A stretch of 63,336 nt of DNA from Chloroflexota bacterium (GCA_039933775.1 JBDTNK010000003.1:1-63336); one strand, 5' to 3'; shown: positions 17,759-38,703, counted from the stretch's first letter. A program made the numbers and translations. Notes: a model not told the origin generated them from the sequence alone.

Positions 17759-17766
17759 ACGAACGC

Positions 17767-22917: not shown

Positions 22918-25674
22918 CTAGGTGCCCCGGATCTGCGCCATGACGGCGTCCGAGATGATGCCGGGGCCGCCGAGCACGTGCACGAGGCTCGGGTCGAGAC
23001 CGGCGATCGCAGCGAGGACGCCAGGCTCCAGTGATGTCACCTTCGTCAGGAGGACCGGCACGCCGCCCGGACCTGCGGCCAGTGCATCAGGGAAGTTCAG
23101 CCCGGTCGCAACGAACAGATGATCTCCCGTCGAGGCATTGAAGAAGGCCTGCGCGATCTTCACGGCGGTGTCATAGCGCGTGTCGCCACCCAGGCGCGTG
23201 ACCGTCGTCGCATAGCTGTGCAACTGCGTCTCCACTGCCGCGGAGATGGCGGTAGGCCCACCCGCGATGAAGATTTGGCCCGGATTGAGCCGATCGAGCT
23301 GCGCGACAGTCGCCGCGGGAATGTCGCCTGACCGGACCAGCAGGATCGGGATTCCGGCGTGCGCCGCCGCTGCTGCGCCAGAGATCGCATCGGGGAAGTT
23401 CAGCCCGGTCGCGACGATGACGGCCGCCGCGGTGCCCGGGAAGGCGTCCTGGACCGCGATGGCGGCCGTCTCGTATCGGTCAGCTCCGGCGAGACGGACG
23501 ACATTGCCGCTGCGCGCATGGGGCTTGAGCGCGTCCGCGACGGACTGGGGCACGGCATTCGTGCCGCCGAGCAGGTAAATCGTCTGCGGGTTGAGCCGGT
23601 TGAGCTCCGCGACCGTCTCAGGCGGAATCGTTCCGCCCTTCACGAGGAGCAAGGTCCCATTCCGTTTGGCGGCCAATGGACCGCCGGCCAGCGCATCGGG
23701 GAAGGCGACGCCCGTGGCGACGTAGACCGCGTTGACGCCAGTACCCACGCTGGGCTTGAGCAGCTGCGAGACCTGGGCAGCCGTACCGTATCGGTCTGCC
23801 CCGAAGAGGCGCACGACGGTCGGGGTCGCGGCCGGGGTAGGAGTCGCGGTCGGCACCGGCGTGGGGGTGGGCGTGCCCACCGGCGTCGGAGTGGGTACCG
23901 GCGTCGGCGTCGGGGTCGGGGTGGGCGTCGGTCCAGCGGCCGTGCAGGTGCCGCTCACGCGGACTTCATAGATCCGGCCATCGTTCTCCGTCTGATTGGG
24001 AGCGGCATTGTCGACGCCGCGGTCGACGATGTAAGCGCTCGTCCCAGGTCCCGTGGAGCACGGTGCGATGGTCACGCCACCGAGCGAATCGAGCGCTGAG
24101 ATGCTGCTGAGGTCGAACTCCTCAATGATGGTGCCGCTCGTGGAGACGTTGGAGAGCAGCTTGACGCTCTTGCTGTTGCTCACGATCCAGAGGGAGCCAC
24201 CGCTGTAGTCCACGCCCTCGGGATCAGGCTGACCGATGGCGGCCGTGTCGAAGTGGCCAACGACGACATCGTCCCCGCCATCTCCCGGGGTGCCGTCGAA
24301 TACCGTGTTCGCGCCGGGGGCTAGTTCCCAAATCTCGGCACCAAGGCCGTCGCCGATGAAGAGATGGCCGGCACCGAAGCCCAGGCCTTCCGGATCCTGG
24401 ACGCATGGGGCGCCACCGGAGTCGCATGCGTGGACGAGCGAAAAGTCATTGAGCAGCGTGTCGTTGCTGTTGTACGTTGCGTCAGATCCCGGATCGACGA
24501 CGTAGATATGCTTCTGGCTGTCGTTCGAGTTGTACTGGTACTTCGTGCCGGGGTCGACGGCGACGCCGACGGGCTCGGTCTGGTTGTAGTCAGTCGTGTC
24601 GAAGGTGCCCTGGAGAGCCCCCGCAGTCGTGGTCCGATAGCCATTCGCGTTGTTGAACCACGGCGGCGGCGATCCCTCCTCGATCTCGCCATCCACGACG
24701 ACCAATTGGCTGAGCCATGAAGCCCACGCAATGCCGGATGGATCCGTGCTCGACGGGTTCCATGATGAGTTGGAAGTATCGATGGTCCGGATCAGCGTCG
24801 CGGCCGTGGCCGTGGCTGTCAGTGCCTGTGCGGTGAGCTGCGGTTCGGTTAGGTCGACCTCGACGATCCCGGCGTCCTGTTGCGTCACACCCGCGTCTGC
24901 GATGAAGAGATTGTTGACCGATCCCTCGTCGGTCTGATCACCACTCGGCGCCAGCGTGATGCCTCGCGGGTCCGCGAGATTCGCGTCGTCGAGATTGCGC
25001 ACCGTCCGGGGGGTCCCATCGGAACCCAGCTCATAGAGCGCCGAGGTATCGGCGTCGAGGACGAAGATGGACCCGTCCTGCCCGATGGCCGGGCCGACAA
25101 GCCGGTGACCCGCGATATCGGTCAGTGAGGCCAGCACTGGGCCAGGAGCGAGCGTGCCATCGGGCGCCGTCGAGGTCCGCGTCAACGCGTTGGCATCCAG
25201 GACGACGTAGGTGCCATCACGCGGATCGACCGCGATGCCATCAGGCGAAGCCGCGGTGAGCTGTGGCGCGGCGCTGCTTGCCGCGAACGACTTGCCTGTC
25301 GGGATGGTACCGGTGCCGATGAGGAGCCGATGGGTGATCCGGTCGTACGCGAAGACGCCGTCCTGGCCTGGGGGGAGGGCGACAACGCTCGCGACCTCGC
25401 CGATGGGATCGACGTAGGTGACCTGGGAGGCGTCTGCGCCGGCGGAACCAAGCACCGCGAGCTCGCCGCGATCGGCCGCGTACGCAATGCCGGCCGGCGT
25501 TCCGATTCCAAGCTCGCCAGCTTCGATGAGCCTGACGAATCGGGCGTAGCCAGGCACAAACGATGTCGTGCTCGTCGGGCCTTGCGCCGCGACGGGCGCG
25601 GTGAGGCTGAATAGAAGACTCGCCACGACGGCGAAGCTCATGAGCGTGGCACTGCCCCGAGCAGCCTTGGGCAC
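22918..25674 (-). CDS. Secreted surface protein: beta-propeller-like repeats + Pro/Thr linker + 3 CWB2 (cell_wall_binding_2) repeats
   Basis: Signal peptide and SD GAGGGGAGG. Recurring DPxG/EPxG blades. Three RLxGxDRYxTA...ATGxxFPDALAG...LLV units. Confidence 0.88.
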   Translation of the reverse strand: MPKAARGSATLMSFAVVASLLFSLTAPVAAQGPTSTTSFVPGYARFVRLIEAGELGIGTPAGIAYAADRGELAVLGSAGADASQVTYVDPIGEVASVVALPPGQDGVFAYDRITHRLLIGTGTIPTGKSFAASSAAPQLTAASPDGIAVDPRDGTYVVLDANALTRTSTAPDGTLAPGPVLASLTDIAGHRLVGPAIGQDGSIFVLDADTSALYELGSDGTPRTVRNLDDANLADPRGITLAPSGDQTDEGSVNNLFIADAGVTQQDAGIVEVDLTEPQLTAQALTATATAATLIRTIDTSNSSWNPSSTDPSGIAWASWLSQLVVVDGEIEEGSPPPWFNNANGYRTTTAGALQGTFDTTDYNQTEPVGVAVDPGTKYQYNSNDSQKHIYVVDPGSDATYNSNDTLLNDFSLVHACDSGGAPCVQDPEGLGFGAGHLFIGDGLGAEIWELAPGANTVFDGTPGDGGDDVVVGHFDTAAIGQPDPEGVDYSGGSLWIVSNSKSVKLLSNVSTSGTIIEEFDLSSISALDSLGGVTIAPCSTGPGTSAYIVDRGVDNAAPNQTENDGRIYEVRVSGTCTAAGPTPTPTPTPTPVPTPTPVGTPTPTPVPTATPTPAATPTVVRLFGADRYGTAAQVSQLLKPSVGTGVNAVYVATGVAFPDALAGGPLAAKRNGTLLLVKGGTIPPETVAELNRLNPQTIYLLGGTNAVPQSVADALKPHARSGNVVRLAGADRYETAAIAVQDAFPGTAAAVIVATGLNFPDAISGAAAAAHAGIPILLVRSGDIPAATVAQLDRLNPGQIFIAGGPTAISAAVETQLHSYATTVTRLGGDTRYDTAVKIAQAFFNASTGDHLFVATGLNFPDALAAGPGGVPVLLTKVTSLEPGVLAAIAGLDPSLVHVLGGPGIISDAVMAQIRGT
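23822..23934 (-). repeat. Pro-Thr low-complexity linker (PTPTPTPTPVPTPTP...)
   Basis: Seen directly in the translation between passenger and CWB2 domains. Confidence 0.85.
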
Positions 25675-25734
25675 AGGTTCCCTCCCCTCAAGTTGGAGTG
25701 TCGGGCCAGGATCGCTCCTGGCCCGACATCGAGA

Positions 25735-27318
25735 TCAGCTCCCCTGCAGCTGGGTGATGAGGCTGTCCTCGAGCACCGTCGGTCCACCGAGGACGTGAAT
25801 CCGCAGCGGATCGAGGCGCTTGGCCTCGTTGAAGGCAGCTGTGGTCAACGGGCCGCCCTTGGAGAGCAGCAGCGGGTTGCCGAAGGCACCTGCCGCCAAT
25901 GCATCCGGGAAGTTCTGGCCGGTCGCGACGAACAGATCGTCGTACTCGGCCGGACCAAAGAATGTCTGGGACACCACGACCGCGGTGGCGTACCGATCGA
26001 TGCCGGAGAGCCGGGTCACGGTCGTCGTGTAAGCCTTCAGCGCATTGACCACGGTCTCGGGGATCACGCTCGGGCCGCCGAGCACGTAGATCGTGGTCGG
26101 ATTGAGCCGGTCGAGCTGCGTCGCCGTCTCGCCGGGGATCGTTCCACCCTTGACGAGCAGGATCGGTGCGCCCTGATCGCCCGCCGCGGCCGCTCCTGCG
26201 AGGGCATCAGGGAAGTTCACGCCGGTTGCGACGAACACGTTGGTCTCGGTGGTCGGGAAGATGGTCGCGGCAATGTCGGCCGCCGTGCCGTATCGGTCCG
26301 CACCGTCGAGCCGAGTGGCCGTTGCGCCACCCGCGGCCACCTGGAGCTGGGCGACGGTCACATCGGGAATTGCCGCCGGGCCACCCAGGATGTACAGCGT
26401 GGTCGGCGATAGCCGCGCCAGCTCGTTGCTGGTGAAGCTGGGGATGGTACCGCCCTTCACAAGGAGGATCGGCGCGTCGAGCTCGTGGGCCGCTGAGGCA
26501 CCCGCCAGCGCATCGGGGAAGTTGACACCGGTCGCAATGAAGGCCGCGTTGATGCCGCCGGTGGGAACCGTCGGGTACATCATCTGGGACAGCTTCGCCG
26601 CGGTCTCGTAGCGGTCAGCGCCGAAGGTCCGCGTCACCACCGGCGACGGGCGCGGCGTCGGCGTTGCGCTGCCGGTCGGGGTCGCGGTGGCAGTCGGCAC
26701 GGGCGTTGGGGTGGCCGTCCCGACTGGGGTCGGCGTCGGGGTCGACGTCGGAGGCGGCGCGCCGGTGCAGTCGATCGTCACCTTGTACGAGGGCTCCCCA
26801 ATGGGCGGATCCTTGATCGCCCACGATCCGTCTCCATCGGTCCATGACAGGTCTGCACGATTGAGGACCGTGTTGTCGATGCCACCGGTTCCGTTATCGG
26901 GGCACGCCTGAGCCAGAGGCTGCACGGTGACGTTCAGCGTCGCAACAACGGTTTTACCTGCACCCACGGTGCCGACGGTGCACGTGACGTCCACGCCGAC
27001 GACCGGGCAGGCAGTGTCGACGCCGCCATCGTTGGAGAATTTCGCCGACGTGACGACGATCTGGCCGGCGTCGAGTGAACCATCCCCGAGGACGACATTC
27101 GTGACAGCAGTCGAGCCCGTATTGGTGGCTGTCAAGCTATAGGTGTAAACATCGCCGGGAGCGACGTTCGTCGTGGATGACGTCTTGTCGAGCGTCATGG
27201 TGGTGATCGAGGCGCCGACCAGCTGCACGGACAGCAGCAGGAGCACGACGATTCCGAAGGCACTGATGACCCCGGCAAAGAACCGGAGCGTTCCAAAGGC
27301 AGCCAGGCGGGCAGTCAC
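25735..27318 (-). CDS. Secreted surface protein: DUF11-like Ig domain + Pro/Thr linker + 3 CWB2 repeats
   Basis: GTG 27318 preceded by AGGGGAG. TLDKTSSTTNVAPGDVYTYSLTATNTG (DUF11-like). Three FGADRYETA / LDGADRYGTA / LSGIDRYATA + FPDALA units. Confidence 0.88.
   Translation of the reverse strand: MTARLAAFGTLRFFAGVISAFGIVVLLLLSVQLVGASITTMTLDKTSSTTNVAPGDVYTYSLTATNTGSTAVTNVVLGDGSLDAGQIVVTSAKFSNDGGVDTACPVVGVDVTCTVGTVGAGKTVVATLNVTVQPLAQACPDNGTGGIDNTVLNRADLSWTDGDGSWAIKDPPIGEPSYKVTIDCTGAPPPTSTPTPTPVGTATPTPVPTATATPTGSATPTPRPSPVVTRTFGADRYETAAKLSQMMYPTVPTGGINAAFIATGVNFPDALAGASAAHELDAPILLVKGGTIPSFTSNELARLSPTTLYILGGPAAIPDVTVAQLQVAAGGATATRLDGADRYGTAADIAATIFPTTETNVFVATGVNFPDALAGAAAAGDQGAPILLVKGGTIPGETATQLDRLNPTTIYVLGGPSVIPETVVNALKAYTTTVTRLSGIDRYATAVVVSQTFFGPAEYDDLFVATGQNFPDALAAGAFGNPLLLSKGGPLTTAAFNEAKRLDPLRIHVLGGPTVLEDSLITQLQGS
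26642..26760 (-). repeat. Pro-Thr low-complexity linker
   Basis: APPPTSTPTPTPVGTATPTPVPTATATPTGSATPTPRPSP. Confidence 0.85.
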
Positions 27319-27612
27319 GGTGAGGTCTCTCCCCTGATGAGGACGGATGGGTGGAGCGGGCATCGTAGTACGCACGTCCCACGAATGCATAGTGCTCGAG
27401 GGCTTGCTTCCAAGCGTCGCCCGTGTGGCGCTGAGCGTGGTAGATGCCCGTCTGGTGCTGTCCGTCACCGGAAATCCGGAGATTAGCGCGACGGGCTCAC
27501 GCAGGGGTGAGCGACCCGCCAGCTGCAACCGACCGTGCCGAATGAGCCGATGCGCACACCGGCTGCGGCGCTGCCTCCCAGCCACTGGCGAAACCGAGCA
27601 CACAACCCGCGA

Positions 27613-28977
27613 CTAGAAGGCCTCGAGGTAGCGATCGACCTCCCAGGCGCTGACCTGCATGCGGTACTCGTCCCACTCGTTGTTTTTGGCCTCGACGAAG
27701 CGCTCGAAGATGTGCTCGCCCAGCGCTCCGGAGATGACCGGGTCGGCGGTGAGCTCGTCGATCGCCTCGCGCAGCGTGCCGGGCAGCTGCCGGATGCCAC
27801 GCGACTGCAGCGTCGCGGCGTCGAAGTGGTAGAGGTTCTCCTCCACCGGCTCCGGCGGGGTGAGCTCGCGCTCCACGCCGTCGAGGCCGGCGGCGAGCAT
27901 CGCCGCGAAGGCCAGGTACGGGTTCGAGGACGGATCCGGGCAGCGCAGCTCGATACGCACGCTGTTCGTCTGGCCGGCGCTGATCTGCGGGATGCGGACG
28001 AGGGCAGATCGGTTGATCCGCGCCCAGCCGATGTAGACCGGCGCCTCGAATCCCGGCACGAGCCGCTTGTACGAGTTCACCAGTGGGGCGAGGACCGCGA
28101 TCATGCCCCGCGCATGCTCCAGGATGCCCGCGATGTACGAGCGCGCCATCTCGGACAGCCCGTACGGATCCTTCGGGTCGCTGAAGGCGTTGCGCCCCTT
28201 CTTGTCGTCCCACAGCGACATGTGGCAGTGCATGCCCGAGCCGTTGATCCCGAAGAACGGCTTCGGCATGAACGTCGCGTACAGGCCGCGCGACGCGGCG
28301 ATGGCCTTGAGCGTGGTCTTGAAGGTGACCGCGTTATCGGCCGTGCGGAGCGCATCGGCGTACTGGAAGTCGATCTCGTGCTGGCCGGTTGCGACCTCGT
28401 GGTGCGCCGTCTCGACCTTGATGCCGAAGTCCTCGAGGCTGTTCATCATCTCCTTGCGCACCTCGGTGCCGAGGTCCTCGGAGAGGTCAAAGTAGCCGGC
28501 GGCGTCGTGCGGCAGCGGCTCGACGGTGCCGTCCTCGCGGCGCAGCAGGAAGAACTCCAGCTCGGGTCCGGTGTTGAACGTGAAGCCCAGCTTCTTGGCC
28601 CGCTCGACCTGGCGCTTCAGGACGCCGCGTGGATCGCCGGGAAAGGGGTCGCCATTCGGGTCGAAGACGTCGCAGATGACCCGCGCCGAGCCGGTCGTCA
28701 GCTTCGAACCATCCGGCGCCAGGCCGGGCTCCCACGGGATCGGGCTGAAGGTCGAGAGGTCCGGCTTGAGGAACATGTCGGACTCGGCGATGCGGGTGAA
28801 CCCCTCGATCGAGCTGCCGTCGAACCACTTGCCGTGCTCGACCGCCTCCTCCAGCTGGTGGATCGGCACCTGCACCGACTTGACGCTGCCCACGATGTCA
28901 GAGAACTGGAGGCTGATGAAGCGCAGGTTGCGCTCCTCGGCGACCTTCATGACGGCGGCGAGATCCTTGTTGGCCAT
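27613..28977 (-). CDS. glnA: Glutamine synthetase type I
   Basis: LQFSDIVG, FDGSSIEGF.RI.ESDM, GPELEFFL, HHEVATGQHEI, ATFMPKPFFGINGSGMH, NSYKRLVPGFEAP, NRSALVRIP, RIELRCPDPSSNPYL. SD AAGGAG. Confidence 0.97.
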   Translation of the reverse strand: MANKDLAAVMKVAEERNLRFISLQFSDIVGSVKSVQVPIHQLEEAVEHGKWFDGSSIEGFTRIAESDMFLKPDLSTFSPIPWEPGLAPDGSKLTTGSARVICDVFDPNGDPFPGDPRGVLKRQVERAKKLGFTFNTGPELEFFLLRREDGTVEPLPHDAAGYFDLSEDLGTEVRKEMMNSLEDFGIKVETAHHEVATGQHEIDFQYADALRTADNAVTFKTTLKAIAASRGLYATFMPKPFFGINGSGMHCHMSLWDDKKGRNAFSDPKDPYGLSEMARSYIAGILEHARGMIAVLAPLVNSYKRLVPGFEAPVYIGWARINRSALVRIPQISAGQTNSVRIELRCPDPSSNPYLAFAAMLAAGLDGVERELTPPEPVEENLYHFDAATLQSRGIRQLPGTLREAIDELTADPVISGALGEHIFERFVEAKNNEWDEYRMQVSAWEVDRYLEAF

Positions 28978-29075
28978 GGCGCGGCGGACTCCTTGCGGTG
29001 TGCTTCGGGAGTCTCAGGCTAGCCCGATGCCGCCTCCCGAACGCACGCAATCCCGGGTGGCGTCGCCGCCCTCCT

Positions 29076-29092
29076 TTGTGCACTTTGCACAA
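29076..29092. promoter_or_regulatory. Perfect palindrome TTGTGC-N5-GCACAA upstream of glnA, candidate PucR-family operator
   Basis: TTGTGCACTTTGCACAA in the pucR-glnA intergenic region, about 55-70 nt upstream of a TAGCCT -10-like box (29016-29021, minus strand). Confidence 0.7.
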
Positions 29093-29111
29093 TCAGGGAC
29101 CGATGGCGCCG

Positions 29112-30113
29112 CTACTCGCTCCGCTCGGCGGCGCGCAGGATGCGCAGCGCGTCGTCGGGTCGCCGCGGGTCGAGTCCGCGCTCGCCGTGCGCGATGCGCA
29201 GCCGATACAGCACGGTGTTGCGATGCACCCCGAGCGCGCGCGCGGCAGGCGCGATGCGCCCGTTTGCGCGGGCCACTGCCAGCAGCGTCGCGCCCAGCGG
29301 ATCGTCGGTGCGCGGAGGTTGCGGCGGCGCAGGAGCGTCGGCACGGGCGGTGGCGGATGGCGCCGGCCGGCGCAGCAGCGCACGGATCGTGACGGCCAGC
29401 GCCTCGGCGGCCGCGGCGTCGACACGCGCGAAGGGCACGTCGTCGAAGAGCCACAGCGCGGCGCGCTCGCGGATCGGCTGGTGGAGCACCCACAGCCCGT
29501 CACGCAGACGCCGCTGCGCCTCGGTCCCGCTGGCGTCGGCCAGCAGGCGGGCGTGCACGGCGGCGAAGCGCGCCGCAAGCGCGCGTCCGGCCGCGCGGGG
29601 GTTGAGCGCCAGCAGCTTGCCGTCCACGGCCACCGCGACGCCACGGCGCAGGCGCGCCGCCACCGCGCCGGCCGCCGCCCCGAGGCTCGGATCGGCCAAT
29701 GCCGCCTCGGCCGCCGCCAACCGGATCGAGACGGCCAGTCGCGCGAGGTGACCGCGCTCATCGGTCAGGTAGGCCAGGCCCGCGTCTGCGAGGCGGGCCG
29801 CGAGCAGGACGCTGGCGATGACCGGGACGTCGCCGCCGGGCGCCTCGAGCGATCGCGTCACGCCGCCGAGCAGGATCGCCGGCGGCGCCAGTCCGGCCTC
29901 CCCGATCGCGGCCAATAGGCCGTCGAGCGACGTGCCCACGACCAACGCCGCATCGGCGACCAGGAGCGCCCCATCCGTCGGCGGCGGCAGGTGCGGCGGT
30001 GCGGCGCGCGTACGATGCACGCCACGGACGGCGCTGCGCAGCGCCGCATCGGAGCCGGCGAGCAGTCGCGCATCGGGGTCCAGGGCGCGCCACAGGTCGA
30101 CGACCGATGTCAC
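29112..30113 (-). CDS. PucR/CdaR-family transcriptional regulator
   Basis: C-terminal HTH_30 TLLAVARANG.IAPAARALGVHRNTVLYRL and N-terminal PucR-like region. GTGA overlap with the resB stop. Confidence 0.8.
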   Translation of the reverse strand: MTSVVDLWRALDPDARLLAGSDAALRSAVRGVHRTRAAPPHLPPPTDGALLVADAALVVGTSLDGLLAAIGEAGLAPPAILLGGVTRSLEAPGGDVPVIASVLLAARLADAGLAYLTDERGHLARLAVSIRLAAAEAALADPSLGAAAGAVAARLRRGVAVAVDGKLLALNPRAAGRALAARFAAVHARLLADASGTEAQRRLRDGLWVLHQPIRERAALWLFDDVPFARVDAAAAEALAVTIRALLRRPAPSATARADAPAPPQPPRTDDPLGATLLAVARANGRIAPAARALGVHRNTVLYRLRIAHGERGLDPRRPDDALRILRAAERSE

Positions 30114-31399
30114 CGCAGCAGCCGCTCCAGGCGCGCCAGCTCAGGTCCCGGGTCGTCGAAACGCTCCGCGACGAGGACAAGCCGCGTGCCGTCAGCAGTG
30201 GCGCGCAACGTCAGGCGACGGCGCGGCAGCCACAGGGCCACGGCGAGCAGCGTCACCAGCAACGCCGAGCCGCCGAAGACGAGCCCCATCCCCGGGTCGT
30301 TGCGCGACAGGAAGGTGACGTAGGCGTCGAAGCGCACGAGCGTCACGTTGAGCGGCCCGATGCGCGTCGGCTCCCCGGGCGCAAGGACCGCGGTGTCGAT
30401 CGCGCCGCCGGCGCCCGCCACGGTCACGCCCAGCGTGTTCGCGTCCGCGTCGACGAGCGAGAGCCCCAGCGCCAGGCCGGTTCCCGGCAGGTCGGCGGCG
30501 CCCGACGGGCGGCCGGCATCGGTCCCGTCGAGCGGCACCCCGTTGTCGAGCAGCGGCCGTCCGGCGAGCGTCTCGACCCGCAGCCGAACCGCCGGGCCGT
30601 AGGTCCAGCCATGGACCAGGTAGCCGCCGAAGCTGCCCGGCCGGTTGACCTGCAGCAGCTCGCTGCCTGCCGGCTCGCCGTCGCGCAGAAAGGTGACCTG
30701 GGTGTCGAGGCGGCTCGGACGCCCATCGGTCCCGAATTCGGCGTCGAAACGGTCCAGGCGAACGGCATCGGTGAATCCTTCGCGTGCAGGACCGATGCGT
30801 GCCTGCTCGCCGGGAAGCAGGCTGAAGCTCGTCTCGGTGGCGAGCGCGCCGCCCAGGGCCACGCCCAGGACCACGAGCACGAGCGCCAGGTGGCTGCCGA
30901 TTCCGGCGATCCGGGCATATCCGCGCCGCACCGCGTGGAGCGTCCAGCGCTTCTCACGCCCGACTCGTCGTACGCGGTAGCCGGCGCGCTGCAGGACGCG
31001 CGTGGCGTCTGCGACGGCGAGCGGCGGCAGGCTCGCGCTGCGCTGCTGTGAATCGCCGGGTCGCTCCACGACGCCGGTCGGCGAACGCCACTCGCGCCAC
31101 GCGGCGGGCGTGCGCACCGCGACGGAGGCGAGGCCGCTGAGCAGCACGGCGCCGAGGAGGCCCAGGTAGATCGGAGAGTGCAGCAGCGTGGCGCCGTCGG
31201 GAATTGCGGCTGCGGCCGCGTTGGCGAGCCCGGTCAGGAGAAGGAGCGCGATCCCCAGGCGCGGGTCCCCGGCCACGCGCAGCAGACGATCGGCGCGGCG
31301 ATTCGCACGGTCGAGCCGCGTGGCGAACGCGGTGCCGAGTGGCGGTCGCTCAGTCGGGGCGTGCGGCGGCGGCGAGATCCGCGACGAGGTCATCGGCAT
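30110..31399 (-). CDS. resB: Cytochrome c biogenesis protein ResB/Ccs1
   Basis: N-terminal TMs, GIGSHLALVLVVLG (conserved His), FDAEF, QVNRPGSFGGY, DPGMGLVFGG..LLV..L..ALWLPRRR. Confidence 0.8.
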   Translation of the reverse strand: MPMTSSRISPPPHAPTERPPLGTAFATRLDRANRRADRLLRVAGDPRLGIALLLLTGLANAAAAAIPDGATLLHSPIYLGLLGAVLLSGLASVAVRTPAAWREWRSPTGVVERPGDSQQRSASLPPLAVADATRVLQRAGYRVRRVGREKRWTLHAVRRGYARIAGIGSHLALVLVVLGVALGGALATETSFSLLPGEQARIGPAREGFTDAVRLDRFDAEFGTDGRPSRLDTQVTFLRDGEPAGSELLQVNRPGSFGGYLVHGWTYGPAVRLRVETLAGRPLLDNGVPLDGTDAGRPSGAADLPGTGLALGLSLVDADANTLGVTVAGAGGAIDTAVLAPGEPTRIGPLNVTLVRFDAYVTFLSRNDPGMGLVFGGSALLVTLLAVALWLPRRRLTLRATADGTRLVLVAERFDDPGPELARLERLLR

Positions 31400-32528
31400 C
31401 CTCCAGCCCGATCGAGATGCGCACCGTGCCGCCGGTCAGGCCGGCGTCGGCCAGCCCGCGGTCATCGAGCTGGCGATGCGACGAGGACGCCGGGTGGCTG
31501 CACAGGGTTTCGGTGCCGCCCAGGCTCGTGGCGTGGACCGCGACCTCGATCCGGTCCAGGAGGCGCTCCCCCGCTGCGCGTCCGCCGGCCAGGTCGATCG
31601 CCAGCATGCCGCCCGCGAGGCCGTCGCGGAACTGCCGCTGCGCGACCTCGCGCTGCGGGTGGCTTGCCATCCCGGGGTAGCGGACCCGGTCGATCCCCGG
31701 CGCGCCGTCGAGCGCGGCGGCGACCGCCAGTGCCGTCTCGGAGTGCCGCTCCATGCGCAGCGCCAGCGTCTTGAGGCCGCGCAGCGCCAGGAATGCCTCG
31801 AGCGGCTGCGCGTTGCCACCGGCCGTGACGACCACGTGGCGGGCCGCGCCGACCAGCTCGGCACTTCCCAGGATCGCGCCCCCGATCAGGTCGGAATGCC
31901 CGCCGATGTACTTGGTCAGCGAATGCACGACGAGATCGGCGCCGTGCGCGAGGGGGGTGCACAGGTACGGCGAGGCGAACGTGTTGTCGACGCCGAGCAG
32001 CAGCCCGCGCCCGTGCGTGAGCGCAGCGAGGGCGGCGATATCGGCGACATCGGTCGTCGGGTTGGAGATCGTCTCGATCCAGATCAGGCGGGTGCGCTCG
32101 GTGATCGCCGCCTCGACCGCGGACGCATCGGTCGTGTCGACGAAGGTATGACCGATGCCGAAGCCGGCCAGCAGGCCGGTCAGCAGCCCGTAGGTGCCGC
32201 CGTAGATCGCCTTGGCGGCGATGACCTCGTCACCGGGGCGAAGCAACGAGGTGAGCGCGGCGTGGATGGCCGCCATGCCGGAGGCGGTGACGTGGGCCGA
32301 CTCCGCGCCCTCGAGCTCCGCCAGCGCCTCCTCGAGCGCGGCGTGTGTCGGGTTCGAGTAGCGCGTGTACGAGTGCCCGGAGCGGCGGAACTCGAGCAGC
32401 TCCTGGAGCTCGGCGGCGCTGCCAACCTCGAAGGTGCTGGCCTGGTAGATCGGCACGGCCAGCGGCGCCTGCGGCGCGTCGGGGACGCGGCTGGCACTGC
32501 GAATCGCACGCGTCGCGAAGCCCGGCAT
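31350..32528 (-). CDS. Cys/Met metabolism PLP enzyme (cystathionine gamma-synthase/lyase or methionine gamma-lyase)
   Basis: PIYQASTF, YTRYSNPT, SGMAAI, ETISNPT, DNTFASP, HSLTKYIGGHSD (PLP Lys), SLGGTETL, RISIGLED. Confidence 0.93.
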   Translation of the reverse strand: MPGFATRAIRSASRVPDAPQAPLAVPIYQASTFEVGSAAELQELLEFRRSGHSYTRYSNPTHAALEEALAELEGAESAHVTASGMAAIHAALTSLLRPGDEVIAAKAIYGGTYGLLTGLLAGFGIGHTFVDTTDASAVEAAITERTRLIWIETISNPTTDVADIAALAALTHGRGLLLGVDNTFASPYLCTPLAHGADLVVHSLTKYIGGHSDLIGGAILGSAELVGAARHVVVTAGGNAQPLEAFLALRGLKTLALRMERHSETALAVAAALDGAPGIDRVRYPGMASHPQREVAQRQFRDGLAGGMLAIDLAGGRAAGERLLDRIEVAVHATSLGGTETLCSHPASSSHRQLDDRGLADAGLTGGTVRISIGLEDADDLVADLAAAARPD

Positions 32529-32535
32529 GCGGCCG

Positions 32536-32541: not shown

Positions 32542-32563
32542 GCAGGGCGCCGCGCTCGCTCGG

Positions 32564-33907
32564 TCAGCGTGCCGTGGTCGTGGGCCCGCCATCGCCGAGC
32601 AGCTCGTCGGCCAGCTGGCGGATGCCCTCCATGTCGGGAATCAGGATGTAGCCGGAGACCGGGTCGCTGCTCGGCGTGACGAGCGGCGGCTGGATCACGG
32701 CGCGCTCGATGGCGCTCGTATCGGCCTCCTGCAGCGCAGCCGCCATCTCGGGCAGCCGCGATTCGGGGACATCGGTGGCGATCGTGTTCTTGACCGCGTC
32801 GAGCAGGCTCGGCAGCGAGAGGATGACGTTGCCGGCGGTCACCTTGTCGGCGATCGCGGCGAGGAGCTGCTGCTGGCGGTCCGAGCGCGTGAAGTCGCTG
32901 TCGCCGGCGCCGTGGCGCGATCGGGCAAAGGCGACCGCCGTGCTGCCGTCCATGTGATAGACGCCCGGCTCGAGGTAGAAGCCGGTGTGCACGTCGAACT
33001 CGTTCCAGTACGTCGGATCGTCGATGAGCCGCTCGTTGGTGATGTCGACCCCGCCGATGGCGTCCACCGCCTGCTTGAAGCCGATGATGTTGATCGCGGC
33101 GAAGTAGTGGATCGGGACGTCGAGCAGCTCGGAGACCGTCGCCTTCAGCGTCCCTGGCCCGCCGAGCGGGAACTGGCCCGGGTCCGCGTTGGCCGAGGCC
33201 ATGAGGCTGTTCAGCTTCGCGTCCCAGACGCGGCCGTCGGGCAGTGGCGCGCCGTACAGGTCACGCGGGACCGAGAGCATCGACGTCTTGCCCGTCTCCG
33301 GATCCAGGCTGACGATCAGCATCGTGTCGGTCAGCTCGGTCGTGCGGCCCGGCGCGAAGTCGACACCCACGAGCAGGATGTTGACGCGTTCGCCACGCGT
33401 CACCTCCGGCTGCTCCGATGGCGGCGGCAGCGGATCGAAGCCTTCGTCCGACCCACTGTCGCCGCCGGGATCGCCGGTGTCAGCGGCGACGGTGCTCAGC
33501 GTGTCGATCGCCAGCGTGGCGTACCAGGCCGGCACGAGATGCATGACCAGGGTCAGGACCAGCACGCCGGCCGTGGCCCACGTGGTCCAGCGGCGGGCGG
33601 CAAACGGCCTGCGCCGCAGATGCGCCTGCGCAATCGCCACGAGCCGCCAACCCAGGAGCGCCAGGTCGAGCACGACGAGTCCGATGAGGAAGCGCGCGTC
33701 GAGCAACCGCGCGATGACGCCGACCCGCGCCACGAGCACGACGATCAGGAGGGTGCCGATGATCGCCAGCACCGGCAGGGCCAAAATGGTGGCCAACGCC
33801 CGCTCGCCGTTGTACGCCTGTCCAAGCCCGGGAAAGAGGAACGACAAAAAGGCGGCCAGCGACGCGCGCGGCTCCTCGCGAGCGCCGCGACCGCGCGATC
33901 GGGTCAT
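32564..33907 (-). CDS. LCP (LytR-CpsA-Psr) family glycopolymer transferase with N-terminal membrane domain
   Basis: NILLVGVD, TDTMLIVSLD, LSVPRDLY, KLNS, AVDAIGGV, AFARSRH..DSDFTRSDRQQ. Confidence 0.92.
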   Translation of the reverse strand: MTRSRGRGAREEPRASLAAFLSFLFPGLGQAYNGERALATILALPVLAIIGTLLIVVLVARVGVIARLLDARFLIGLVVLDLALLGWRLVAIAQAHLRRRPFAARRWTTWATAGVLVLTLVMHLVPAWYATLAIDTLSTVAADTGDPGGDSGSDEGFDPLPPPSEQPEVTRGERVNILLVGVDFAPGRTTELTDTMLIVSLDPETGKTSMLSVPRDLYGAPLPDGRVWDAKLNSLMASANADPGQFPLGGPGTLKATVSELLDVPIHYFAAINIIGFKQAVDAIGGVDITNERLIDDPTYWNEFDVHTGFYLEPGVYHMDGSTAVAFARSRHGAGDSDFTRSDRQQQLLAAIADKVTAGNVILSLPSLLDAVKNTIATDVPESRLPEMAAALQEADTSAIERAVIQPPLVTPSSDPVSGYILIPDMEGIRQLADELLGDGGPTTTAR

Positions 33908-34046
33908 TGCGGTTCGGGGGAGCGGCCGGTCGAAGCGACGATCGGCAGCGATGATGAGGACATGGGCGAACCAGGTTGGAGGGACCGGCTGGGCGGCGCG
34001 GGCGAGTATAGCGAAATCGGGCTATGGGCCCCAGACGTCACTCAAG

Positions 34047-34052
34047 TAGCAT
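34047..34052 (+). promoter_or_regulatory. -10 TAGCAT exactly 7 nt before ATG 34060 (leaderless promoter candidate)
   Basis: TAGCAT-ctgttgc-ATG, no SD. Confidence 0.5.
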
Positions 34053-34059
34053 CTGTTGC

Positions 34060-35205
34060 ATGCCAACCCTGCCCCAGCGACGGGTGCTGATCGCCGTCGC
34101 CTGTGCTGCGCTGGTCATTGGCGGAGGCGCATATCTGCTTTTCGGACGATCAAACGTGCCGGTCGCGAGCGCCTCTCCATCGCCCTCGCCCTTGCCGTCA
34201 CCCACACCCTCGCCGCGGGCCACGCGCACGCCACGACCGTCACCGACGCCCTCACCGACCCCGGTCGAGGTGGCGCGCTGTCCCCTCACCGGCCTGCCGC
34301 TGGACGATCCTGCGAAGGCCGATGCCACCGCCATCCTGCTGCAGATCGAGAACCATCCCGAGGCGCGCCCCGCCTCGAACCTCAGCCGCGCCGACATGGT
34401 GTACGAGGCGCCGGTCGAGGGCGACACGACCCGCTACTCCGCCGTCTTCCTGTGCCAGGAGACCCAGGGCCTGACCGGTCCCGTCCGCAGCGCGCGCTAC
34501 TACAACGTGGACCTGTGGCAGGACGTGCACCTGCTGACGCTCGGCTTCGGCGCCTCGGCCGGCGCCGTGGCGCGCTTCGCCGCGGCGGGCATGCCATACC
34601 TCAACGGCATCAGCGGCACGTGGCCGTGGTACGTGCGCAGCTCGCAGCGCGCGGCACCGCATAACGTCTACGGAGACATGGAGGCGGCGCGGGCGGACAT
34701 CGCGGGCGACACGCTCGCCGGCCGCGTCGCGCGGACCGTCCCCGCGCTGCGGCCGCCACTCAGCTTCGATCCCGAACTCGAGATCGAGGGATATCGGGAC
34801 GTCGACAGCCTGACGATCCAGACGAACAGCTTCTGGGTCTTCGGCTGGGAATGGGACGGCGATCTTGGCGCCTGGCGTCGCAGCGAAGCCGGCGTGCGCC
34901 ACGTGGATGCCGCGACCGGCGACCCGGTGGCCGCGCGCACGGTGATCGTGCAGCGCGTCGTCGAGCGCGTCGTGCTGGGCGATCCCGATCCCGGCGGCAA
35001 CCCGCGGCGCGAGCAGGATCTCGTCGGTTCGGGCAATGGCACGGTCTACGTCGACGGCCAGGCGATCGATGCCACCTGGTCGCGCGCAACGGCCGACGAC
35101 GGCACGACCTGGACCGTCGCCGAAACCGGCGATCCGCTCGTCCTGCCGCCGGGCCAGGTGTGGTGGGAGATCGTGCCGCTCGAGGCGAGCGTCATCGAGG
35201 GTTGA
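34060..35205 (+). CDS. DUF3048 (YerB-like) membrane-anchored protein
   Basis: TM + SP/TP linker, CPLTGLP, QIENHPEARP, ADMVYEAPVEGDTTR, GPVRSAR, RAAPHNVY, LPPGQVWWEIVP. Confidence 0.85.
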   Translation: MPTLPQRRVLIAVACAALVIGGGAYLLFGRSNVPVASASPSPSPLPSPTPSPRATRTPRPSPTPSPTPVEVARCPLTGLPLDDPAKADATAILLQIENHPEARPASNLSRADMVYEAPVEGDTTRYSAVFLCQETQGLTGPVRSARYYNVDLWQDVHLLTLGFGASAGAVARFAAAGMPYLNGISGTWPWYVRSSQRAAPHNVYGDMEAARADIAGDTLAGRVARTVPALRPPLSFDPELEIEGYRDVDSLTIQTNSFWVFGWEWDGDLGAWRRSEAGVRHVDAATGDPVAARTVIVQRVVERVVLGDPDPGGNPRREQDLVGSGNGTVYVDGQAIDATWSRATADDGTTWTVAETGDPLVLPPGQVWWEIVPLEASVIEG

Positions 35206-35217
35206 GCGCAGTCGGCC

Positions 35218-36948
35218 TCAGCTGGCGCGCTGGTCGTCGTCGCGGTCGCGGTCGCGGCGCTCACGTCGTGGGCCGGGAGCGCCCAGAAATGCGTCCATGG
35301 CGCGGCGGATCTGGTAGTCGGGGTCGTAGCTGAGCGCCGCGATGCGCCGTCGCGCCTCCGCTGGATCCAGGTCCTCGTCGCCCGACGTGGTGGCCGGGTG
35401 CGTGCCGTTGGGGCGCAGCTCGGCGGGCTCGAGCTCCTCTTCGAACTCGTCGTCCGTCTCGAGGTCCGCGCTCATGTCGGGCGCAGCTTCGGGAACCTCG
35501 GGCTCGGCGACGGCCGTTGGCGCGGGCGGCGGCGTGATGATGACCGATGCCGTCTCGGGCGCAGCGACGGCGGTTGGCGCAGGCGGCGGCGTGATGATGA
35601 CCGATGCCGTCTCGGGCGCCGCGGCGGCGGCCTCGGGCGGCGGCGCTTCGGCCGCGATCGGCGGGGCCGGCTCCCCGACGGGGATGCTGGCCGGGACCGC
35701 GACCGGCAGCGCGCTGGTGGCCAGGCTGCGGCGCGGGCGCGGATTGCCGCTGATCTGGTTCTTGCCCAGGCCCTTCGCCGCGTACATGGCGCGGTCCGCG
35801 GCGATCATCAGCTCCTCGACCGTGCCGCCATCCTCGGGATGGGACACGAGGCCGATGCTGACGCTCGTCGTGGCATCGCCGCCGAAACCCTCGCCGATTT
35901 CCTCGGCCGAGGATCGAATCTTCTCGGCGACCACGAATGCGCCGACGATATCGGTCTCCGGAAGAAGGATGAGGAACTCGTCGCCACCGTATCGGTATGC
36001 CGAGTCGACGGTTCGGATCGAGCGCAGGATGACGCCGCCCAAGGCCCGCAGCACGGTATCGCCGCGATGGTGCCCGAAGGAATCATTCACCACCTTCAGC
36101 CCATCGAGATCAATCATCAGCAGGCAGAAGCCGCGGTCGCTGCGGCGGGTCCGGCGGATCTCGTTGTCGACCGTGGTGTAGATATGCGAACGGTTGAAGA
36201 GGCCGGTCAGCGGGTCAGTGACCGACATCTGCAGCATCCGTGCACGGATGCGCCGCTCCTGGCCGGCAAAGACCGATGCGATGAGCGTCAGCAGCCAGAT
36301 CGCACCGATGTGCAGGCCAAAGCCGAGCAGGTCCCCCGCCACGTAGGTCGAGCGCGCCGGATCGATGGCGAGAACGCCCACGTAGGCCAGCGACGCGATC
36401 GCCGCGAAGACAAAGGCGCCGCGTCCGCCACGAGCGAGCGCCACCGCCACGACCGCCACGTCGAAGCCGAAGACGAACGGTGAAGAGCCGTAGCCGGTGA
36501 GCACCAGCAGGGCGGCCGCCAACGCGAGGGCCACGAATGCCTCGACCAGGCCGACCGTGTTCGCGCGCCAGCCGCTGGGAATCACCTCGTGGAACACGAT
36601 CGCGGCGGCCACCGCCACGATGCCGAGCCCGAAGATGAGCTGCTCGTTCTGACGGAAGGCGCCGGAGAGGCCCACGCCGATGAGCGCCGCAGCGATGACC
36701 AGCCACCACAGGATGCGCAGGATGCGGCGGTAGTCGGCGCCACCACCGGCGTTGAGCTCATGGACGGTCGGGACCGCGCCGCTTTCGGCGTACTTGGTGC
36801 GCAGCTCTGGCGGCTGATGCGTCGGCAGGGCGACATCGGTTCCTGCCTCTTCTCCACGCTGGCCTCGCGGCAGCGCCACGAGCACGCCGATGACGAGCAC
36901 GTTGGCCACCACCACAGTGACGATGAAGAAGATGAGCTCTGGCGACAC
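35218..36948 (-). CDS. Membrane diguanylate cyclase with Pro/Ala/Glu-rich C-terminal tail
   Basis: About 6-7 TMs, TDPLTGLFNR, IDLDGLKVVNDSFGH..GD, RTVD I-site, RYGGDEF, ADRAMY.AK..GKN. Confidence 0.92.
   Translation of the reverse strand: MSPELIFFIVTVVVANVLVIGVLVALPRGQRGEEAGTDVALPTHQPPELRTKYAESGAVPTVHELNAGGGADYRRILRILWWLVIAAALIGVGLSGAFRQNEQLIFGLGIVAVAAAIVFHEVIPSGWRANTVGLVEAFVALALAAALLVLTGYGSSPFVFGFDVAVVAVALARGGRGAFVFAAIASLAYVGVLAIDPARSTYVAGDLLGFGLHIGAIWLLTLIASVFAGQERRIRARMLQMSVTDPLTGLFNRSHIYTTVDNEIRRTRRSDRGFCLLMIDLDGLKVVNDSFGHHRGDTVLRALGGVILRSIRTVDSAYRYGGDEFLILLPETDIVGAFVVAEKIRSSAEEIGEGFGGDATTSVSIGLVSHPEDGGTVEELMIAADRAMYAAKGLGKNQISGNPRPRRSLATSALPVAVPASIPVGEPAPPIAAEAPPPEAAAAAPETASVIITPPPAPTAVAAPETASVIITPPPAPTAVAEPEVPEAAPDMSADLETDDEFEEELEPAELRPNGTHPATTSGDEDLDPAEARRRIAALSYDPDYQIRRAMDAFLGAPGPRRERRDRDRDDDQRAS
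35507..35619 (-). repeat. Tandem 57-bp (19-aa) duplication in the DGC tail
   Basis: APETASVIITPPPAPTAVA twice. Copies start at 35507 and 35564 with few nucleotide differences. Confidence 0.9.
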
Positions 36949-37026
36949 CGGCCCTCCCGACCCTGAAATGGCAGATTCAGATTCCGACCGATCGTCGCGA
37001 TGCGCTCGGGACGCCTTTCGGGGCCT

Positions 37027-37055
37027 AGTCTAGGCGGGGCTTCGGGGTGGCGCAA
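37027..37055 (-). promoter_or_regulatory. Sigma70-like promoter for the DGC gene: TTGCGC-N17-TAGACT
   Basis: Both hexamers read on the minus strand with a 17-nt spacer, about 80 nt before GTG 36948. Confidence 0.45.
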
Positions 37056-37163
37056 AGGTACTAACCCCTCAGTACTGCCCAATGTGCGTGAACGCACCGG
37101 GGAAGCGGTGCGCGGAGGTCAAAATAGCCGCCGATTGAGCCCTCCGGAACGCCGGCCGCGGGT

Positions 37164-37172
37164 TGCTATACT
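37164..37172 (+). promoter_or_regulatory. Extended -10 TGcTATACT upstream of the second LCP gene
   Basis: TGn + TATACT about 40 nt before ATG 37213. Confidence 0.5.
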
Positions 37173-37212
37173 GCGACGCTCCGCCCCGTTCTCGCCTTCT
37201 GCCAGGGTGTCC

Positions 37213-38703
37213 ATGACCGATCTCTCGCGCCGCCGACACCCCGCTGTGGCCGCCGCCCTGTCGTTCCTCATCCCGGGACTCGGGCAGGCCTATTCGGGTC
37301 GCTGGCGCCTTGGATTGCTGCTCGGAGTGCCCTTCGTGCTGCTCGTGATCGCGGCGGTGGCGGCGTATTTCCTGGCCGCCGACGCGCTGCGCAACGCGAT
37401 CTTCAGCTCGACCTTCCTCATCGGTCTGTTCATCGCCAACGCGATCCTGCTGGTGTGGCGCGGCGCCGCCATCGGTCATGCAGGGTTGGCGGAGGAGAAG
37501 GAGGCGGCGGCGGTCGCGCCGCGCCATCGGTCGCCATGGGCGATTGGTGCGGTTGTCGTGCTGCTGGCCGCCACCGTCGGGATGCACGGCTACGCGGCAA
37601 TCGTGATCGACCGGCTCAACGGCACGCTGGAGCAAGTCTTCTCCGGTGGCCACCAGACGGAAGATGGTGACGGCGACGCGACCGGTAACCCGGACGATCC
37701 GCTGGATGAAGAGGCGCCTCTGAACCAGCCTGCCTACGAGTGGGACGGCACGGACCGGATAAACTTCCTGCTCATCGGCGTGGATTCCGGGCCGGGACGC
37801 GACCAGCAGCTGACCGACACGATCCTCGTCGTCAGCGTCGACCCGGTGAAGCAGGATGCGGTGATGGTCTCGGTGCCGCGCGATACCGGATTCATGCCGC
37901 TGCCCGATACGAGCGTGTACGCGGACGGGCGCTTCCCACAGAAGATCAACGAGCTCGCGACGACGGCCGATGCATCGCCGCAGGTGTGGTGCCCCGACCT
38001 GCCCGAGGGCGCCGACTGCGGCGTTCGCACGCTGGAGCGATCCGTGGCGCTCTACCTTGGCATCCCGATCCAGTACTACGCGCGGATCGACCTGGTCGGG
38101 TTCACGCAGCTCATCGACGCGGTGGGTGGCGTGAACCTGTGCCTGCCCGGGCGGCTGATCGACGAACAGTACCGACTCCCGGGGTCGCCAGAAATAGGGA
38201 TCGCGCTGCCTGCGGGCTGCCGGACATATGAGGGTGACGAGGCGCTCGCCTACGCGCGCATTCGGATGGGCTTCATCGAGCTGCCCGACGGCACGAGGGA
38301 GCAGCAGAACGACTTCAAGCGCGCCGAACGACAGCAGGAGGTCCTGCTCGCGCTGCAACGCGAGCTGACCGGTGGCGACCTCTTCTTTGAGCTCCCTGGC
38401 TTTCTGGATGCGGTGGCCGAGACGGTCCAGACCGATTTCCCGCGCTCAAGCGCCGGCGACCTGGCCACCCTGATGCCGCTGATCACGCGCGGCGATATCG
38501 AGCGCGTCGTGCTGGGCCTGCCCGAGTTCGTCGAGCCACCACTCGACCCGGTAAACAACTACATCCTCACCCCCATTCGCGATGCGATCGTGGCCGAGAT
38601 GCGGCGCCTCTTCGGCACCGATCTCCACGGATGGTATGTAGGCGGTCCCGATACGGTGCCACCGCCCTTCAGCCTCGATCAGTCGCCATCGCCGGGCACC
38701 TGA
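37213..38703 (+). CDS. Second LCP family protein with N-terminal membrane domain
   Basis: SFLIPGLGQAYSG, NFLLIGVD, TDTILVVSVD, VSVPRDT, KINEL, LIDAVGGV, ALAYARIR, NDFKRAERQQ. Confidence 0.92.
   Translation: MTDLSRRRHPAVAAALSFLIPGLGQAYSGRWRLGLLLGVPFVLLVIAAVAAYFLAADALRNAIFSSTFLIGLFIANAILLVWRGAAIGHAGLAEEKEAAAVAPRHRSPWAIGAVVVLLAATVGMHGYAAIVIDRLNGTLEQVFSGGHQTEDGDGDATGNPDDPLDEEAPLNQPAYEWDGTDRINFLLIGVDSGPGRDQQLTDTILVVSVDPVKQDAVMVSVPRDTGFMPLPDTSVYADGRFPQKINELATTADASPQVWCPDLPEGADCGVRTLERSVALYLGIPIQYYARIDLVGFTQLIDAVGGVNLCLPGRLIDEQYRLPGSPEIGIALPAGCRTYEGDEALAYARIRMGFIELPDGTREQQNDFKRAERQQEVLLALQRELTGGDLFFELPGFLDAVAETVQTDFPRSSAGDLATLMPLITRGDIERVVLGLPEFVEPPLDPVNNYILTPIRDAIVAEMRRLFGTDLHGWYVGGPDTVPPPFSLDQSPSPGT

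Follow-up and report, generated by a model that had tools for sequence, protein, structure and literature searches.

The pair of CWB2 genes

The stretch of DNA analysed here, hereafter the window, is contig C3 (GCA_039933775.1 JBDTNK010000003.1:1-63336; 63,336 nucleotides, ~69% GC) of G000, a metagenome-assembled genome (MAG) of an uncultured, soil-type Chloroflexota bacterium that amounts to 2.29 Mb in 125 contigs. Its open reading frames (ORFs) were called with the guidance of the GC content at third codon positions (GC3). Two of the genes, P0001 and P0002, are co-directional on the minus strand, with glnA on one side and a series of glycan genes on the other (Table 1), and the products of both end in a triplet of CWB2 repeats, the module of the Cwp surface proteins of Clostridioides difficile. 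In P0001 the propellers span residues ~31-610 and the CWB2 repeats residues ~620-918 (nt ~22918-23817). The longest ORF of P0002 is 25735-27603(-), within which the GTG at 27318, placed 8 nt after a GGGGAGAG ribosome-binding site, is likely the true start; the resulting protein of 527 aa has the size on record in the protein collection, and its orthologues measure 503-530 aa. Direct reading of the N-termini reveals a basic/hydrophobic/AxA segment in P0001 and, from the GTG start, a hydrophobic helix in P0002. A scan for promoters and terminators around the pair gave nothing better than shuffled sequence.

Both proteins match the PF04122 (CW_binding_2) profile in three stretches each, with 171.9 bits for P0001 and 176.7 bits for P0002 (cut-off 24.9), and the whole of G000 contains 27 such repeats above the cut-off, which correspond to nine proteins with three repeats each, at the C-terminus in eight of them and at the N-terminus in one. 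Each CWB2 repeat carries a P[ILV][ILV][LV] motif ('PILL'), whose ILL core is essential for anchoring (Willing 2015, PMC4973711). The [ILV][ILV][LV] core is present in 27/27 repeats of G000 and is preceded by Pro in 24 of them, the first repeat of P0001 having TLLL in place of PILL. Mean lengths of the first, second and third repeats of the nine proteins are 101.8, 100.2 and 92.9 aa, the third being the shortest and also the most divergent (~41% identity to the other two, which share ~49% with each other). Sequence searches of the PDB with the P0002 triplet retrieved Cwp6 (2e-26), Cwp8 (3e-13) and the high-molecular-weight (HMW) subunit of SlpA (1e-11). Published work on the Cwp family includes Usenik et al. 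2017, and PDB 5J72, 5J6Q and 7ACY are structures of this family. The AlphaFold2 (AF2) model of the P0002 triplet (pLDDT 92.7, pTM 0.91) gave in Foldseek 11 significant matches, all of them to C. difficile CWB2 modules and none to any other fold, with query TM-scores (TMq) of 0.83-0.89 to the complete triplets of Cwp6, Cwp8 and SlpA (0.89 for 5j72, 0.86 for 5j6q and 0.87 for 7acy). The model thus predicts a single pseudo-threefold unit built from the three repeats, as in Cwp6, Cwp8 and SlpA HMW, and membership of the triplets in the CWB2 family is established as far as computation allows.

The nine CWB2 proteins of G000 are distributed over five contigs. Of the seven encoded outside the window pair, two are S8 proteases (one with Big_5), and the passengers of the other five are a CAP domain, a GH18 domain, a pectate-lyase-like domain, a propeller of the PQQ-type glucose/sorbosone dehydrogenase (GSDH) kind and a domain without a Pfam match. 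By analogy, this mix of passengers looks much like the Cwp repertoire of C. difficile. A recent foreign origin of the CWB2 genes was considered and ruled out: ranked among the 1,073 long ORFs of the genome, their GC3 values fall between the 11th and the 68th percentile, the glycan cassettes being the only outliers.

As to the host, the nearest named relatives of the window GlnA are MAGs of Candidatus (Ca.) Limnocylindria, Ca. Limnocylindrales or Chloroflexota (82-85% identity), which on sequence grounds places the lineage in the class Ca. Limnocylindria of the Chloroflexota, and not in Firmicutes or Actinomycetota. GlnA was used for the placement because RpoB was recovered only as a fragment at the end of a contig. 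The size and GC content of G000 agree with the published mean of this class (2.39 Mb and 68.9% GC; PMC10608941). A search for Omp85/BamA found none in G000 and 12 relatives (0/13), while diderm controls were matched in 7/7 cases, a result that fits the monoderm status of the Chloroflexota. This phylum is accepted as monoderm. The preliminary description of this DNA, which had read in it two tandem secreted proteins with exactly three CWB2 repeats each, in a lineage outside Firmicutes, is therefore borne out by profile, motif, repeat lengths, predicted fold and taxonomy, with secretion judged from the N-termini.

The site in related genomes

The bacterial family was compared through a set of 25 genomes, several of which are only 55-88% complete, which affects the calls of absence, and for which the statistics are uncorrected for phylogeny; genomes and contigs are designated below by G and L numbers. 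The conserved frame of the locus runs LCP2-GGDEF-DUF3048-(LCP1)-Cys/Met PLP-(ResB)-PucR-GlnA, and then continues with glycan genes that include Wzx2, GT4 and PPase. The position of the pair between glnA and the glycan genes is kept in at least seven independent contigs, which indicates that the arrangement is more than chance. In the contigs with P0001 orthologues (G001, L039, L040/L041, L042, L043 and L044; 37-71% identity) the pair, or three CWB2 genes, always comes directly after glnA. What follows the pair is variable: L040 and G001, a sister species, have the ATP-binding cassette (ABC) exporter cassette of the window, L039 and L043 have RmlAB/Wzx/GT4 genes, and L042 and L044 go on directly with Wzx-GT4-PPase, so that the window cassette is missing from the orthologous loci of L039, L042, L043 and L044. 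Moreover, the GC3 of BacTransf1, GT1e, GT1d and GT4c lies in the 1st-5th percentile and that of most cassette genes in the 1st-14th, and the Wzy end of the second glycan module (576-4163) is at the 0th percentile; Wzx2, LCP1 and GlnA are at the 80th-100th. Low GC3 and replacement in orthologous loci together indicate that the pair borders a hot-spot of glycan cassettes and that the adjoining cassette is exchangeable. The composition of these cassettes is consistent with horizontally exchanged, serotype-like units. Without any intervening CWB2 gene, glnA and the glycan genes are direct neighbours in four CWB2-negative genomes (G002, G014, G015, G024) and in two CWB2-positive ones (G006, G023). 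The main CWB2 clusters of G006 and G011 are located ~15 kb beyond LCP2.

The anchor module itself can also be different at this site. L058, a single short metagenome contig of 8.5 kb and 70% GC (ENA ERZ27297473 k141_2506653), encodes two proteins that both end in three SLH repeats, one with a DUF11 passenger and the other with a propeller of the P0001 type (38.6% identity over 568 aa), and continues with orthologues of BacTransf1 (73%) and PPase (77%) and with GT4 genes. From its gene content, L058 is read as carrying this pair at the corresponding site, with CWB2 replaced by SLH, and the presence of SLH triplets on the same passengers at an orthologous locus is a strong argument that the CWB2 module is a wall anchor. 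Among the 25 family genomes, CWB2 occurs in 11 (5-33 repeats), SLH in 6 (6-32) and both in 1, and the content of CWB2 changes within genera: in genus g2, 25 SLH matches and no CWB2 were found in G002, against at least 14 CWB2 repeats in G227 and G368, and in genus g14, G014 has no CWB2 and G154 has three repeats. The SLH-rich G002, G019 and G024 each contain a high-scoring CsaB-type pyruvyltransferase, whose gene lies inside the envelope locus in two of them (G002, G024) and next to the SLH genes in the third (G019), and SLH and strong CsaB are associated (Fisher p = 0.009). No CsaB was found in the envelope locus of the CWB2 family genomes, and G000 shows no SLH match and only a weak PS_pyruv_trans paralogue on contig C6, outside the locus. 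The swap and the occurrence of CsaB constitute the best available evidence, at the level of gene content, that the locus would serve polymer-dependent surface display with CWB2 as the anchor. No CsaB-like enzyme is known to mark the ligand of CWB2. A further proposal, which we hold only tentatively and regard as doubtful in its full form, is that CWB2 and SLH would be interchangeable on the same orthologous proteins at one locus, with a distinct mark on the wall polymer for each, pyruvylation by CsaB in the case of SLH and some other determinant in the case of CWB2.

The envelope locus of the window

The features of the window are collected in Table 1. The glycan locus next to the pair falls just outside the left coordinate of the region first singled out (22918-38703), and the secondary-wall-polysaccharide locus that the preliminary description placed there is indeed found, with a priming polyprenyl glycosylphosphotransferase (PGT) 163 bp downstream, four glycosyltransferases (GTs) of the GT1 and GT4 families and an ABC exporter. 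The two LCP ligases expected 5-11 kb away were likewise recovered, both passing TIGR00350, at 5.2 and 9.7-11.4 kb from P0002; the orthologues of LCP2 in relatives have 48-55% identity. The window holds two of the three LCP genes of the assembly, two of its three Bac_transf priming transferases and its only Wzm-type permease, and is therefore the main wall-glycopolymer region of G000. The genes expected for a PSII-type chemistry are manC, pgm2, a MviN-type flippase and a second uppS; in the Pfam analysis of the window there were RmlA/RmlB-type enzymes, Wzx flippases and the ABC exporter, and no phosphomannomutase or UppS. These matches give no clear sign of a PSII-like glycan.

Table 1. Coordinates of the CWB2 pair and of the surrounding features of the window
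Feature	Coordinates	Strand	Remarks
P0001	22918..25674	-	918 aa; signal peptide, two tandem NHL/YjiK-type beta-propellers, Pro/Thr linker, three CWB2 repeats
P0002	25735..27318	-	Signal peptide/anchor helix, DUF11 (CLIPPER-type) domain, Pro/Thr linker, three CWB2 repeats
ABC-transporter-dependent glycan cassette	14647..22754	mixed	Pfam, NCBIfam
GT4b	14647-15840	-	ABC cassette
TagH/Wzt ATPase	15883-16959	-	ABC cassette
Wzm/TagG-like permease	16823-17773	-	ABC cassette
GT4c	17725-19653	+	ABC cassette
GT1d	19675-20757	-	ABC cassette
GT1e	20750-21994	-	ABC cassette
BacTransf1, small polyprenyl glycosylphosphotransferase	22002-22754	-	ABC cassette; 163 bp downstream of P0001
Pyrophosphatase (PPase)	11238-11957	+	Conserved flank of the glycan region; Pfam
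Wzx-type flippase (Wzx2)	12072-13478	+	Conserved flank
GT4a	13475-14650	+	Conserved flank
Second glycan module, Wzx/Wzy-type	576..11479	mixed	Pfam
GT4	576-1727	-	Wzx/Wzy module
Unknown protein	1731-2660	-	Wzx/Wzy module
Wzy-like	2733-4163	-	Wzx/Wzy module
Wzx	4182-5645	+	Wzx/Wzy module
Alg14-like	5704-6177	+	Wzx/Wzy module
GT2	6662-7702	+	Wzx/Wzy module
GT2	7696-8982	-	Wzx/Wzy module
RmlB-like	9480-10655	-	Wzx/Wzy module
RmlA-like	10511-11479	-	Wzx/Wzy module
glnA	27613-28977	-	Core gene; Pfam
PucR-type regulator	29112-30113	-	Core gene
ResB-like	30110-31399	-	Core gene
Cys/Met pyridoxal-phosphate (PLP) enzyme	31350-32528	-	Core gene
LCP1, LCP-family glycopolymer-peptidoglycan ligase	32564-33907	-	PF03816; TIGR00350 106 bits; ~5.2 kb from P0002
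DUF3048 protein	34024-35205	+	Between the LCP genes
GGDEF diguanylate cyclase	35218-36948	-	Between the LCP genes
LCP2, LCP-family ligase	37000-38703	+	PF03816; TIGR00350 75.8 bits; ~9.7-11.4 kb from P0002
Second small polyprenyl glycosylphosphotransferase (Bac_transf)	38767-39672	-	Pfam, NCBIfam
Extracytoplasmic function (ECF) sigma factor	39499-40485
RskA-type anti-sigma factor	40482-41249

Around these genes, orthologues of the flanking PPase, Wzx and GT4a adjoin the pair or glnA in relatives, and the order of glnA and the PucR, ResB and Cys/Met PLP genes is the same in L039, L042, L044, G002, G006 and G023; the core genes between 27613 and 32528 probably do not belong to the surface system. 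The block of GGDEF and DUF3048 genes between the LCP ligases is kept in G002, G006, G011, G023, L039 and L042, which hints at a control of wall-glycopolymer attachment by cyclic di-GMP. The sigma and anti-sigma factors lie directly beside the second priming transferase and may regulate the locus in response to envelope stress. GT4c, with 642 aa, has its GT4 domain at residues ~134-430, and its ~130 N-terminal and ~210 C-terminal residues lack Pfam matches. In L039 (ENA ERZ25039577 contig_86894) the genes for GlnA, LCP1, the Cys/Met PLP enzyme and an RmlB-like protein are split into fragments, which look like frameshift errors of a long-read assembly rather than real pseudogenes.

The passenger domains

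The passenger of P0001 belongs to the SdiA-regulated/YjiK and NHL family (216 matches), and its AF2 model predicts two tandem six-bladed propellers (pLDDT 88), for which Foldseek returned only generic double propellers, with no specific function indicated. The C-terminal module varies across this passenger family, with CWB2 in the nearest relatives, SLH in P0015 and, elsewhere, carbohydrate-binding modules (CBM), PKD domains or type IX secretion system (T9SS) signals. In the family alignment (window 23845-25584) 23 positions are invariant, mostly acidic or polar residues such as D281, D298, E300, E303, E337, D355, D397 and E399, together with D438, D439, D446, N534 and D535, and the conserved end motif reads 'DRGVDN...DPNENDG'; residues of this kind suggest that the family, which is widespread, has an active site or binds a metal. 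G000 also encodes, at C1:28421-30676, a 751-aa paralogue of the double propeller with 37% identity, which has the same Pro/Thr linker and a different, CBM-like C-terminal module and is found within a sulfated-polysaccharide island. Its location in the island suggests that the propeller may act on, or bind, surface glycans.

These data also bear on the idea that the pair forms an S-layer, as SlpA does in C. difficile, which would be compatible with the anchoring mechanism presented below. The genes are kept as a pair at a fixed site beside a glycan locus, as is slpA, the SLH versions resemble typical S-layer proteins, and neither the DUF11 nor the propeller passenger has a clear catalytic signature in Pfam. 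However, no lattice-forming homologue was found, the many invariant Asp, Glu and Asn residues of the propeller family point to a metal site or an enzyme, and the pair is absent from several CWB2-positive relatives, and an S-layer role seems, on balance, improbable.

Proposed anchoring and its ligand

The most plausible pathway, to which we assign as a whole a probability of roughly 0.7, would start with the export of P0001, a double beta-propeller protein, and P0002, a DUF11 protein, by Sec. The C-terminal CWB2 triplets would then hold both proteins outside the single-membrane, peptidoglycan-walled cell of Ca. Limnocylindria, each triplet acting as one pseudo-threefold unit that would bind non-covalently to a wall-linked polymer, probably a glycopolymer attached by LCP ligases. 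The two proteins are members of a nine-protein, Cwp-like family, and their genes are inserted in a conserved envelope locus, with glnA on one side, the exchangeable glycan-cassette hot-spot on the other and the main LCP ligases 5-11 kb away. Finally, CWB2 would be one of two interchangeable anchor modules in the bacterial family, the other being SLH with CsaB.

Several observations weigh against this account. The signal peptides of P0001 and P0002 were judged by eye only, and G000 is a MAG with 87% completeness. Neither CWB2 nor SLH is present in 9 of the 25 family genomes, and the mutual exclusivity of the two modules is only a trend (p = 0.18). The net charge of the triplets ranges from -11 to +9, with -9 for P0002, and is thus not uniformly basic, which gives no indication of a simple electrostatic attraction to an anionic polymer. 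Moreover, none of the glycan genes tested is associated with CWB2 across the family, neither GT1e (p = 0.62), nor Wzx2 (p = 0.43), nor the sulfotransferase island of contig C1 (p = 0.29).

These null associations are central to the question of what the triplets bind. The most immediate candidate would be the polymer of the adjoining cassette (PGT, GTs and ABC exporter), attached to peptidoglycan by the LCP ligases, in which case the window would be a self-contained system like the cwp/AP locus of C. difficile. The cassette lies immediately downstream of the pair and in the same direction, it includes the only Wzm/TagG-type exporter of the assembly with LCP genes nearby, it also follows the pair in G001 and L040, and the layout is that of C. 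difficile (PMC4973711). On the other hand, the pairs of L039, L042, L043 and L044 precede other glycan genes or Wzx-GT4-PPase directly, the GC3 of the cassette (1st-5th percentile) indicates that it was probably exchanged, and the seven other CWB2 proteins of G000 are encoded elsewhere. Orthologues of GT1e occur in G001 and G023 and also in the CWB2-negative G009 and G013, and are absent from 8/11 CWB2-positive family genomes, a phyletic pattern by which GT1e was rejected as the ligand gene. We therefore consider the polymer of this cassette an unlikely ligand. The conserved Wzx2 was rejected as ligand gene on the same type of evidence, being present in 5 CWB2-positive and 4 CWB2-negative genomes. 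As regards the complete glycan, LCP and CWB2 system put forward in the preliminary description, the part that stands comprises the triplets, the monoderm envelope, the main wall-glycopolymer region, the conserved position and the SLH swap; the equation of the adjoining glycan with the ligand does not, the cassette being swappable and showing no co-occurrence with the anchor.

An anionic, probably sulfated, polysaccharide encoded on C1 would offer a parallel with PSII, and two genes of the C1 island recall the pair, one for a CWB2 protein with the pectate-lyase-like passenger (C1:43756-46011) and the other for the propeller paralogue mentioned above. Nevertheless, sulfotransferase orthologues were found only in G000, G001, G011 and the CWB2-negative G003, being missing from 8/11 CWB2-positive genomes, and the triplets are not basic overall. 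The phyletic pattern of the sulfotransferases led to the rejection of the sulfated polysaccharide, which we regard as a very improbable ligand.

Taken together, the comparative data argue that the ligand would be a conserved feature of the wall, and not the product of the cassette next door. The main alternative to a polymer is then that the triplets bind peptidoglycan or some universal wall component, with their proximity to the glycan genes reflecting a general clustering of envelope genes. This fits with the lack of any tested glycan gene that tracks CWB2, with the dispersal of the CWB2 proteins of G000 over five contigs and with the CWB2-positive G006 and G023, which have no CWB2 gene at the junction between glnA and the glycan genes. 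However, the SLH-tagged pair at the same site and the presence of CsaB there in SLH-rich relatives tie the locus to polymer-dependent anchoring, the main CWB2 clusters of G006 and G011 lie ~15 kb from the LCP2 block, and the characterised ligand of C. difficile is a polysaccharide (PMC4973711). For these reasons a direct binding to peptidoglycan appears quite unlikely, and our preferred guess is that the ligand is a conserved part of the LCP-attached polymer.

Comparison with known anchoring systems

Like the Cwp family of C. difficile (SlpA, Cwp2, Cwp6, Cwp8, Cwp66 and Cwp84), the G000 proteins carry exactly three non-identical repeats at one end, with a PILL motif per repeat, the third repeat being the shortest, and, according to the model, the same pseudo-trimeric fold; they also form a multi-member family with varied passengers, including proteases and glycosidases, and the anchor genes directly adjoin a wall-polysaccharide locus with LCP ligases. 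In C. difficile, some Cwp members lie beside the wall-polysaccharide (AP) locus with its LCP genes, and the ligand is PSII (PMC4973711). The differences lie in the host (Chloroflexota, 69% GC), in the distance between the modules (21-24% identity), in the size of the family (9 members versus 29) and in the glycan genes, which show no clear sign of a PSII type, are represented next to the pair by an ABC exporter in a variable cassette and, to judge from GT1e and Wzx2, do not accompany the anchor across the 25 genomes.

A second reference is the SLH/CsaB system with pyruvylated secondary cell-wall polysaccharide, exemplified by Sap and EA1 of B. anthracis as Mesnage et al. 2000 is relayed in PMC4973711 and PMC8559796. 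By analogy, both systems would share a triple-repeat module and a non-covalent anchoring to an LCP-attached wall polysaccharide, and some members of the bacterial family use SLH on the same proteins or at the same locus (L058, and G002, G019 and G024 with CsaB). G000, in contrast, lacks SLH domains, has no CsaB in the locus and uses CWB2.

The nearest relatives of the triplets are automatically annotated 'cell wall-binding repeat-containing proteins' (PF04122/COG2247; 35-55% identity) from Actinomycetota (e.g. Microbacterium), Acidimicrobiia, Actinomycetia and Chloroflexi MAGs, which share kinds of passengers with the G000 family (S8, GH18, CAP, GSDH, amidase and DUF11). LytC and LytB of B. 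subtilis belong to the same Pfam family, and the B. subtilis control genome was above the cut-off. In LytC/LytB the repeats form the N-terminus of an amidase and its modifier, and both ligand and genomic context are different. In an even sample of 401 Chloroflexota genomes, CWB2 was detected (E <= 1e-8) in 10, six from the family of the window, three from another family of the same class and one, weakly, from outside the class, and within Chloroflexota CWB2 is essentially a patchy trait of Limnocylindria. Across all bacteria more than 6,500 proteins match the P0002 triplet at E <= 1e-20. High numbers of repeats were also seen in two small MAGs, one of Sumerlaeota (L015/G043; 2.1 Mb, 51 repeats in ~17 proteins) and one of Actinomycetales (L016/G044; 2.0 Mb, at least 30 repeats).

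Reviews treat CWB2 anchoring as a clostridial trait (PMC8559796, PMC4973711), and the experiments on it come almost exclusively from C. difficile. In the literature searched, no experimental study on the CWB2 module was found for Chloroflexota or Actinomycetota, nor anything on the cell wall in that on Limnocylindria. The module itself is not new, since thousands of CWB2 triplet proteins outside Firmicutes are already annotated; the earlier statement that the system is not well characterised in this lineage is hence fair with respect to experiments and less so with respect to databases, where such proteins are already named. What is added here is the comparative picture of a cassette hot-spot and of a swap with SLH.

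The presence of a full Cwp-like family in Limnocylindria, an abundant class of Chloroflexota that is uncultured, would extend this mechanism to another monoderm phylum, and is a starting point for understanding how these bacteria may display enzymes at the cell surface. It is also a warning that a neighbouring glycan locus should not be assumed to make the ligand of the anchor. In any case, the bacterial family provides a natural experiment, in which one pair of proteins, encoded at one locus, ends in CWB2 in some cases and in SLH in another, the cassettes are swapped freely and CWB2 flips within a genus, so that the question of CWB2 recognition becomes approachable by comparative genomics. 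If the wall polymer indeed bore a separate mark for each of the two modules, a comparison of the gene contents of sister genomes could reveal the CWB2 counterpart of CsaB, that is, the target of CWB2 outside C. difficile.

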